Sequence record: PQ571307
Source of the DNA: Shigella phage SF1-1
Length of the DNA stretch: 64,000 nucleotides
Strand: one strand, 5' to 3'
Shown here: piece by piece, positions 11,938 to 13,130 of the stretch
How positions within the stretch are numbered: position 1 is the stretch's first letter
Layout: each line of letters begins with the position of its first letter
The notes under the pieces: model-generated
Databases searched by the model: none
What the model was told of the DNA's origin: nothing
The model's input: the letters and a program-made list of their open reading frames with translations, nothing else
Translations under genes and position numbers: made by a program

Positions 11938-12438
11938 ATGGGTGTAGCAACAATAGCTATCGGAAGAAGCGGTATAGATGAGTGCTATCAAACGGGACTC
12001 GTAAAACCTAACGAATTTCGTCAAATTTGTGTAAACCATATTGAAAAAGAGATTGCTCTTACTTTAGAGAATATGACCCTCCGAGATAAACTGGAAATGT
12101 TTAAATGTTGGTGTCTAGGAGAAGATTGGCTTTTAAACCATTTTCAAGAACTTTCTGATAGTAAAGAAAGCTTGTTTGATTGTATAATAGGAATAGCTGG
12201 CTCCGATCCTAGCCTTCTGCACATAACAGAAGAAGAGGCGAAGTTACTGTTCTTAAGTAATTTGTTTAATAAGAAAGCACTGCTTGTTCGTGATTGCAGT
12301 GATCTTCTTAATAACCCGCTCGCAACGTCTGATCAAATTTTTGTTGACAAAGAGACACTACGTGCGATAGAATACATCTGCAAATATGTGAATGGCGGGA
12401 AAGCGGTTCTTAAAACATTAACAGAGGAGGAAGAATAG
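11938..12438 (+). CDS. hypothetical protein
   Basis: AAGGAGGA upstream; start could be TTG 11935 or ATG 11938. Confidence 0.45.
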   Translation: MGVATIAIGRSGIDECYQTGLVKPNEFRQICVNHIEKEIALTLENMTLRDKLEMFKCWCLGEDWLLNHFQELSDSKESLFDCIIGIAGSDPSLLHITEEEAKLLFLSNLFNKKALLVRDCSDLLNNPLATSDQIFVDKETLRAIEYICKYVNGGKAVLKTLTEEEE

Positions 12439-13130
12439 TGACGACAATTATTGCAACCAAAAATAAGATTTTGAGTGACGGTAAGGTAACTTTTGGTGGA
12501 CGTGTAGATTCTATTAATTTCAAAAAGGTCCGAAAAATTGGAGATTACCTTGTAGGTGGTGCTGGTCGTCTGACCTCCGTGCTTTCTTTCTTTCAATGGT
12601 TTGAACAAAATCTACAGTGCGAAGCAGCACGCGATGCTGTCCCTGGTTTGATGATTCATTCTGATCCAGACAAAGAAGATGAAGAGTTTATTGCACTTGT
12701 TGTTCATCCAGACGGACGTATTTTCCTGCACGAAGGTAACAACCCAACACGTGCATATCCGATTGATGAAGAATATTATGCAGTGGGGAGTGGGTCAGAC
12801 TTTGCTTTAGCTGCTCTTGATGCAGGGGCAACACCAGAACAGGCTATGGAAGTAGCTAAAAAGCGAGATGCTTTTTCTGGTGGTGAAACATTTATTGAAG
12901 AACAAGACGAGATTATTGAATTAACAGACGATGATTTAGAAAACTTCTCCAAAGAAGAATTAATCAATCTTTTGAAATTCGGTAATCCCTACGGTGAAGA
13001 AGAACCTCGTAACGTGGCAGGTAACGAGGCGGATACTGAAGAAAAATCTGTTGCAGAAAACAACTTGACTTCTAAATCTGAAAATATTAATCTCGTAAAT
13101 GTAGCGGATTTCGAAGGAACCGCTATTTAA
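12438..13130 (+). CDS. HslV/ClpQ-like N-terminal-nucleophile peptidase with acidic C-terminal extension
   Basis: GTG start then TTIIA (Thr at position 2), KVRKI, GGAGR, AVGSGS blocks colinear with E. coli HslV. Confidence 0.6.
   Translation: MTTIIATKNKILSDGKVTFGGRVDSINFKKVRKIGDYLVGGAGRLTSVLSFFQWFEQNLQCEAARDAVPGLMIHSDPDKEDEEFIALVVHPDGRIFLHEGNNPTRAYPIDEEYYAVGSGSDFALAALDAGATPEQAMEVAKKRDAFSGGETFIEEQDEIIELTDDDLENFSKEELINLLKFGNPYGEEEPRNVAGNEADTEEKSVAENNLTSKSENINLVNVADFEGTAI

Follow-up and report, generated by a model that had tools for sequence, protein, structure and literature searches.

The window analysed here, a 64,000-nucleotide stretch of DNA from Shigella phage SF1-1 (sequence record PQ571307), encodes at positions 12438-13130 a 230-residue peptidase of the proteasome/HslV superfamily (MEROPS T1) whose T1 catalytic set is intact, judging from its sequence. 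By profile scores and residue comparisons, the peptidase is not an orthologue of HslV. It is most likely an accessory, phage-lineage-specific T1 N-terminal nucleophile (Ntn) hydrolase that would work without an unfoldase. Proteolytic activity and self-compartmentalising ring assembly are predicted. The gene and its catalytic features are as follows.

12438..13130, plus strand: peptidase coding sequence, 230 aa, GTG start, taken from the open reading frame (ORF) list; equivalent to phAPEC8 gp175
12438..12902, plus strand: catalytic core domain, residues 1-155, predicted alpha-beta-beta-alpha Ntn fold
12441..12443, plus strand: codon of Thr2, the equivalent of HslV Thr1; threonine in 61/61 family members
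12477..12527, plus strand: stretch running from Asp14 (12477-12479) to Lys30 (12525-12527), which correspond to Asp17 and Lys33 in the catalytic triad of the proteasome and HslV
12786..12794, plus strand: Gly117-Ser118-Gly119, the equivalent of HslV Gly123-Ser124-Gly125; invariant in 61/61 members

The original prediction had proposed colinearity with HslV and an Ntn-hydrolase origin, and the profile searches bear this out. The Pfam family PF00227 (Proteasome) matches the peptidase with 25.6 bits, above the gathering cut-off of 22.4 (E = 1.1e-5), and all 61 relatives match it at E<=1, several of them under the Pfam cut-off. PHROG 1040, “peptidase HslV family”, is matched with an E value of 1.6e-63. 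A sequence search of the PDB returns 13 HslV sequences at E<=0.003, the best being Thermotoga maritima HslV (1m4y, E = 4.9e-9), which is colinear with the peptidase across residues 12-160. The sequence blocks named in the prediction are present as KKVRK (residues 29-33), GGAG (40-43), and GSGS (117-120).

An AlphaFold2 model of the peptidase monomer, built with the 61 relatives as alignment input, has a mean predicted local distance difference test (pLDDT) score of 82.8, and most of residues 1-160 score above 90. Foldseek comparison of this model with the PDB retrieves HslV (3ty6, 1m4y, 6kr1), the beta-proteobacterial proteasome homolog BPH (5ovt), and archaeal 20S beta subunits with E values of about 1e-10. 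The model thus predicts an alpha-beta-beta-alpha Ntn fold that can be superimposed on proteasome beta subunits and HslV.

The residues of the active site have been mapped programmatically onto Escherichia coli HslV from family alignments of 22 and 61 members. Thr2, Asp14, Lys30, and Ser118 are kept in 61/61 members and map to HslV Thr1, Asp17, Lys33, and Ser124, while Gly43 at the oxyanion position is kept in 60/61. The threonine directly after the initiator therefore does align with the HslV nucleophile, and the catalytic threonine and lysine on which the prediction depended are both retained throughout the family. The translated product starts with MTTIIATK, and the MTT start is shared by nearly all of the best 150 matches of a profile search across 1.84 billion cluster representatives. 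Methionine aminopeptidase favours small second residues such as threonine. Because of this specificity and the common MTT start, the threonine nucleophile is probably exposed without a propeptide, as in bacterial HslV.

Membership in the superfamily does not make the protein an HslV. The NCBIfam equivalog models for HslV, NF003964 and TIGR03692, give the peptidase 32.2 and 31.4 bits against cut-offs of 137 and 157.75; as a control, E. coli HslV scores 302.4 and 288.3 bits with the same models. The profile search finds 8,268 proteins at E<=1e-3 and just 57 at E<=1e-30. When the best 150 matches are re-scored, they reach at most 37 bits against E. coli HslV and 25-234 bits against the peptidase core. 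Many of these 150 are “MTTI...” proteins of 137-155 aa that fall in separate clusters and score 45-83 bits against the peptidase core. The nearest relatives of the peptidase are thus phage “MTTI...” proteins and not HslVs, so the earlier description as “HslV-like” holds for the superfamily but is too specific as a label.

A structural difference lies in the region of the HslV helix H2 and pore motif, which is replaced by the following feature.

12639..12689, plus strand: proline-rich and acidic loop, residues 68-84, VPGLMIHSDPDKEDEEF, net charge -5

AlphaFold2 models these residues as a loop with no helix, where HslV and proteasome subunits have H2. The loop motif PxVxIxxPExxxDEDF is kept in the family down to 32% identity. 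The HslV pore motif R86-M87-L88 aligns to gaps in the peptidase, and the following R89-K90 become E82-E83, which are acidic in 61/61 and 57/61 members, respectively. HslV K28, which reportedly binds the C-terminal carboxylate of HslU, corresponds to S25, and a basic residue is found at this position in 0/61 family members. The pocket of HslV that receives the HslU C-terminal tail is formed by F54, F57, Q114, and A79/K80 (PMC6429459). In the peptidase, A79-K80 become D76-P77 and Q114 becomes Y107. The protein is classed as not an HslV orthologue, as far as sequence comparison can tell, because its equivalog scores are far under the cut-offs, H2 is replaced, and the pore motif is deleted or reversed in charge; most of the pocket residues are changed as well, with the two in helix H1 still hydrophobic.

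These differences bear directly on the proposal that the phage peptidase hijacks the HslU of its host. In that case the peptidase would dock on the host HslU hexamer, replacing the host HslV or mixing with it, and ATP-dependent unfolding would be redirected into a phage-controlled chamber. The peptidase lies more than 100 bits under the HslV equivalog cut-offs, and H2, which supplies part of the HslU-facing surface and the pocket positions A79/K80, has been exchanged for the proline-rich and acidic loop. The position of K28 is never basic in the 61 relatives, that of Q114 holds aromatic or aliphatic side chains, and the pore motif, basic in HslV, is deleted or reversed in charge. Moreover, some jumbo phages encode their own HslU, so the orphan status of the peptidase is not forced. 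On this evidence hijacking of host HslU, which the original prediction had raised, is not favoured and seems unlikely. The annotations “HslV” and “ATP-dependent protease subunit” are misleading for such genes, and nothing indicates ATP dependence.

The core is followed by a 75-residue C-terminal extension (residues 156-230) with a net charge of -15, in which two parts can be distinguished.

12903..12992, plus strand: post-core helical hairpin, residues 156-185, with the pattern LTxExxxx[F/M/L]SKEEL[I/L]xxL[K/F]
12993..13127, plus strand: acidic C-terminal tail, residues 186-230, net charge -8, predicted disordered (pLDDT <50)

In the AlphaFold2 model the hairpin consists of helices 164-169 and 172-181, with pLDDT values of about 85. 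It is kept in all long forms examined, including those of Aeromonas phage 2L372D and Vibrio phage 501E54-1 and metagenomic relatives. The sequence of the tail is unconserved (identity of 0.04-0.12 per 10-residue block), but the acidity of the extensions is retained across the family, with a median net charge of -12. Many relatives carry a further C-terminal domain of up to ~220 extra residues, for total lengths of up to 379 aa; the peptidase is without this domain. Pfam recognises nothing in the extensions of the peptidase and its relatives. In a published survey of proteasome homologs, the C-termini were described as generally pointing away from the assumed rings and as possible interaction sites (PMC8665760).

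Several readings of individual segments have been rejected. Mimicry of the HslU tail by the C-terminus of the peptidase itself (…VADFEGTAI against …DLSRFIL in HslU) was considered, but the last ~45 residues vary even in close relatives. A SAP/HeH identity of the hairpin and of the terminal motif of long relatives was suggested by eye only, and Pfam gives such a match in 1/61 members with E = 0.2. Weak Pfam matches to DUF7433 and CMD fall inside the core with non-significant scores and are noise. Many long relatives (L005, L006, P0079, P0092, P0098, and P0114) share a terminal motif, approximately DLRxxCxxLGIxYSxxxTKxxLAxxIxxxI, after a beta-rich stretch, and this motif is missing from the peptidase.

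The closest described class is found in the survey of proteasome homologs by Fuchs, Alva & Lupas (2021; Bioinformatics 37:4694; PMC8665760), which defined the groups PPH and RPC. According to these authors, PPH and RPC are, connectase aside, the sole homologs missing a flanking helix (H2), and they have no propeptides. Neither a co-occurring AAA+ partner nor a function was identified for the new homologs. PPH, of ~140 aa, was termed “the first true viral member”, while RPC carries a C-terminal extension and was reported only from proteobacterial genomes. Both are Group I proteasome-like Ntn hydrolases. The peptidase likewise lacks H2, a propeptide, and an AAA+ partner, and is phage-borne; like RPC, it has a C-terminal extension. 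Because of the absence of H2 and of a propeptide, the phage origin, and the C-terminal extension, it has been filed in the PPH/RPC branch, on the traits described for that branch, whose published representatives are WP_042125023.1 (PPH) and WP_140207863 (RPC).

The peptidase differs from both groups in some respects. In PPH the H2 segment is deleted, whereas the peptidase, with 230 aa and a core of ~155 aa, has the 17-residue loop instead. The spacing between G-x-A-G and G-S-G is accordingly 77 residues in the peptidase and ~56-69 in short forms. RPC comes from proteobacterial genomes, whereas the peptidase family resides in genomes of virulent phages and is nearly absent from bacterial species representatives. 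A pattern-based, narrow scan of the GTDB species representatives returned only a 425-bp contaminant contig and one match of 25% identity in a metagenome-assembled genome. The contig, JAPMLR010000072.1 of Lysobacteraceae bacterium JHOS43, encodes a fragment with 100% protein identity to residues 68-208 of the peptidase and is almost certainly coliphage contamination of the bacterial assembly.

HslV (ClpQ) has H2 and a basic pore motif, while the peptidase has no H2, a deleted or acidic pore motif, a remodelled HslU-tail pocket, no HslU adjacent or elsewhere in the genome, and the 75-residue extension. BPH (PDB 5ovs/5ovt) is bacterial, retains H2, has a longer pore loop, and is without the C-terminal hairpin and tail; its sequence similarity to the peptidase is marginal (phmmer E = 1). 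It is still the closest functional analogy, with an acidic pore loop and no unfoldase. Mutations in the HslV pore motif are known to deregulate proteolysis (Park 2013, cited in PMC8665760). HslV-like proteins of jumbo phages (for example Erwinia phages Ea35-70, SpecialG, and RAY, and Salmonella phage SPAsTU) also have the HslV fold (BFVD), but these phages encode an HslU-like ATPase as well (gp116 in RAY), which the phAPEC8 lineage does not.

The novelty of the protein was overstated in the original prediction. RefSeq already labels gp175 of phAPEC8 “peptidase HslV family”, PHROGs has the same label, and an orphan phage HslV had been remarked on earlier (PMC7823757). The peptidase is therefore already known at the level of annotation, and the orphan class was described bioinformatically in 2021 (PMC8665760).

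As to a partner, the original prediction had stated that no HslU-like AAA unfoldase is nearby. No HslU-like ORF is found in the 64,000 nt of the window (best E = 1.9), and this statement stands. An AAA ATPase had been missed, however; it is encoded on the other strand, at a distance of 40 kb from the peptidase, and is listed here with its neighbour.

52239-53375, minus strand: AAA ATPase, 379 aa, classical AAA family, PHROG 2376 “ATPase”; PF00004 match of 29.8 bits against a cut-off of 21.2
51162-52217, minus strand: CapR-domain/HNH-type endonuclease adjoining the AAA ATPase

In a survey of 50,697 phage records, HslU homologs occur mainly in jumbo phages of Erwinia and Salmonella. Among Escherichia phage records, 4 have HslU matches and 107 have the peptidase. 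The peptidase occurs in 270 phage records in all, including Escherichia (107), Vibrio (44), Caulobacter (36), Aeromonas (15), and Rhizobium (15). The phAPEC8 lineage is thus without an HslU, as far as homology searches detect one.

The AAA ATPase could be the unfoldase of the peptidase in the way that Cdc48/VAT or PAN serves the archaeal 20S proteasome. Besides the PF00004 match, it has a Walker A motif (GTKGSGKT), a Walker B motif (VVLFDEFD), and the segment NRPSRIYY, which resembles the second region of homology, together with weak PDB matches to Rix7, VCP, and AFG2 (E ~1e-3), and the 107 Escherichia phage records that have the peptidase have this ATPase too. It also has weak clamp-loader and DnaC-like matches, shows no clear aromatic-hydrophobic-Gly pore loop by eye, and sits beside the endonuclease and far from the peptidase gene. 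It is present in 396 records, including Escherichia (107), Enterococcus (62), Bacillus (37), Staphylococcus (27), Lactobacillus (22), and Lactococcus (22), and PHROG 2376 ATPases are common in jumbo phages and in large phages that infect Gram-positive bacteria. The five last-named genera lie outside the ten listed for the peptidase, while Vibrio, Caulobacter, and Rhizobium, all hosts of peptidase phages, lie outside the ten listed for the ATPase, where even the smallest genus counts 8 records. Because these distributions overlap little outside this phage subfamily, the two proteins are unlikely to form an obligate pair, and the notion of the ATPase as the unfoldase of the peptidase is given very little weight.

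Two neighbouring genes have been considered in the same context and are listed here for orientation.

11935..12438, plus strand: equivalent of gp174, hypothetical protein of 167 aa, phrog_14834
11093..11902, plus strand: PhoH-like P-loop ATPase, two genes upstream of the peptidase; Pfam PF02562, E = 1.2e-36

In relatives whose identity is 30-34%, a gp174 equivalent likewise precedes the peptidase. Its family covers 133 records, is limited to Stephanstirmvirinae-like phages, and has no Pfam or PADLOC match. A role as dedicated partner was rejected on account of this lineage restriction, the lack of a domain match, and the loss of the start/stop overlap in distant relatives. In three lineages, long-form peptidases have PhoH 0.5-3 kb on their 5' side, but no PhoH gene is close to the short forms of Caulobacter, Rhizobium, N4-like Vibrio, and Roseobacter phages. 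PhoH has been rejected as a partner ATPase since it accompanies long forms only and is of an SF1-helicase-like P-loop type, not an unfoldase; its proximity looks like inherited module order. PADLOC shows no resemblance of the peptidase to defence-system components.

Short-form homologs in Caulobacter phage Karma (locus L007, 876-2306) and Roseobacter phage DSS3P8 (locus L012, 6152-8951) lie 1-3 kb from NAD-salvage genes, namely nicotinamide phosphoribosyltransferase and NadM. In the window phage, a Sir2-like gene is located ~10 kb 3' of the peptidase; the association may be coincidence.

A natural deletion shows that the gene can be dispensed with. In phage VEcB (MT932211; 2165-2968 of locus L008), the 267-aa product vecB_055 (P0066) joins ~120 N-terminal residues of PhoH, in frame, to peptidase sequence that starts near residue 63. 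The in-frame deletion of ~1.2 kb has removed the C-terminal part of PhoH, gp174 in full, and the half of the peptidase that contains the catalytic Thr/Asp/Lys; ~145 C-terminal residues of the peptidase are left. The gene order in MT932211 is lysozyme, the PhoH-peptidase fusion, and then the downstream gene. A second assembly named VEcB, OZ035773 (locus L009), is 1,183 bp longer and has a full-length peptidase gene. As the VEcB isolate has been propagated without the catalytic half, the peptidase gene is accessory.

Dispensability in VEcB, together with the fast-evolving sequence of the tail, would also fit a decaying or functionless passenger gene. On the other side, the catalytic residues are invariant in 61/61 members down to ~30% identity, the core and hairpin are conserved across phage lineages, and the family extends to 8,268 cluster representatives at E<=1e-3. 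A passenger gene is therefore hardly credible. Another rival reading is an enzyme of high specificity, such as a site-specific processing protease, a small-molecule amidase, or a connectase-like transpeptidase or ligase, which may be monomeric or otherwise not form a ring. However, the connectase-type S3/S4 insertion is missing in the peptidase, the core aligns best with the self-compartmentalising HslV, 20S beta, and BPH, and the conserved acidic motif at the position of the pore loop is most easily explained by the existence of a pore. Such a specific, possibly non-ring enzyme is accordingly rather improbable.

The preferred reading is a ring-type particle with no dedicated unfoldase, acting on unfolded or disordered proteins, peptides, or a few specific targets; we consider this somewhat better than an even bet. 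After translation, host deformylase and methionine aminopeptidase would expose the threonine as a free N-terminal nucleophile, with no propeptide to be removed. The subunits would then build a ring-type particle that works without a dedicated AAA+ unfoldase, as has been proposed for BPH and other new homologs. In the infected cell it might cleave peptides and proteins that are unfolded or intrinsically disordered, or else a handful of specific targets, with the acidic pore loop and the C-terminal extension controlling access or perhaps recruiting substrates or partners. Phage fitness would profit from the gene, although plaques would form without it.

Several points weigh against this reading. 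The independence from an unfoldase is argued from the absence of a partner and the divergence of the interface, both read from sequence, and all known hosts possess HslU. The HslU-tail-pocket positions in helix H1 remain hydrophobic (F57 to F52, F54 to L49), so a host unfoldase may yet be used. The AlphaFold2 model is of a monomer and carries no information on ring assembly. The core of ~155 rather than ~140 aa and the lack of close bacterial relatives make the fit to both published clusters imperfect, and any choice between PPH and RPC would rest on the published descriptions. Literature searches found no activity, oligomeric-state, substrate, or expression data for the peptidase or any PPH/RPC member.

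A bolder proposal can be made for the long forms. They may be self-gated viral mini-proteasomes, free of an unfoldase and with a new quaternary arrangement, in which the acidic loop, together with the hairpin and the tail, would pick out basic, intrinsically disordered proteins of the host to be destroyed without ATP during takeover; alternatively, the hairpin may dock on a host AAA+ machine other than HslU. This proposal is speculative and we regard it as a long shot. If the mini-proteasome reading is true, nucleoid-associated, ribosomal, or defence proteins are candidate targets. Literature searches returned no experimental characterisation of any viral proteasome homolog. The E. coli phages are easily grown, several relatives having been isolated on K-12 MG1655, and with the natural deletion variant they offer a convenient system. 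It could be used to address how an unfoldase-free phage peptidase assembles without H2, how access is gated, and which proteins are cut.

Two sequence signals flank the gene.

12424..12430, plus strand: Shine-Dalgarno sequence GAGGAGG, 7 nt 5' of the peptidase GTG, read from the letters
13136..13151, unstranded: GC-rich hairpin TGCCCCTTCGGGGGCA followed by TTTCTT, 6 nt past the peptidase stop, from a consensus scan

The 230-aa ORF is confirmed by its GTG start, the Shine-Dalgarno sequence, and homology beyond chance in Pfam, PHROG, and the PDB. The TAG stop of the gp174 equivalent and the GTG start of the peptidase overlap by 1 base. The hairpin pairs perfectly, has T-runs flanking it on both strands, and is absent from the annotation of the phAPEC8 record; by these sequence features it is terminator-like in either direction. 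A private sigma-70 promoter at 12344-12373 (11/12 match) was considered and rejected, as it is not kept outside phAPEC8 and the region shows no enrichment of promoter-like sites.

The peptidase gene has counterparts of 98-99% DNA identity in 60-odd Escherichia phages of the phAPEC8 type (Phapecoctavirus, Stephanstirmvirinae), and the window phage is a Phapecoctavirus. In the RefSeq record of phAPEC8, gp175 stands in a long block of genes on a single strand. On its 5' side are thymidylate synthase, ribonucleotide reductase, dTDP-sugar enzymes, glutaredoxin, lysozyme, PhoH, and the hypothetical gp174, and on its 3' side are methyltransferases, a Ser/Thr phosphatase, a DprA-like protein, and Sir2. 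The region is an early/auxiliary block, not a virion module.

Some further observations have been made in the window and in the related records. A run of deoxythymidine diphosphate (dTDP)-sugar genes on the plus strand at ~6900-10183 of the window (for example 8781-9347 and 9341-10183) encodes a nucleotide-sugar epimerase, a glucose-1-phosphate thymidylyltransferase, a dTDP-4-dehydrorhamnose 3,5-epimerase, and a reductase-like protein; the gene content suggests phage-directed synthesis of a dTDP-rhamnose-type sugar. At 810-3503 of locus L003, from a distant relative, the large subunit of ribonucleotide reductase is 897 aa long, while that of the window phage has ~750 aa; the longer protein shows a faint intein-splicing Pfam match and may carry an intein. 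Finally, some records labelled with other hosts (for example Campylobacter phages A150/A145/A110a, Acinetobacter phage vB_AbaM_ABPW7, Pseudomonas phage PsgM04F, and Klebsiella phage ZCKP1) carry genes 99% or 66-82% identical to those of Stephanstirmvirinae coliphages, and these non-Escherichia host labels may be wrong or reflect contamination, unless the host range is unusually broad.

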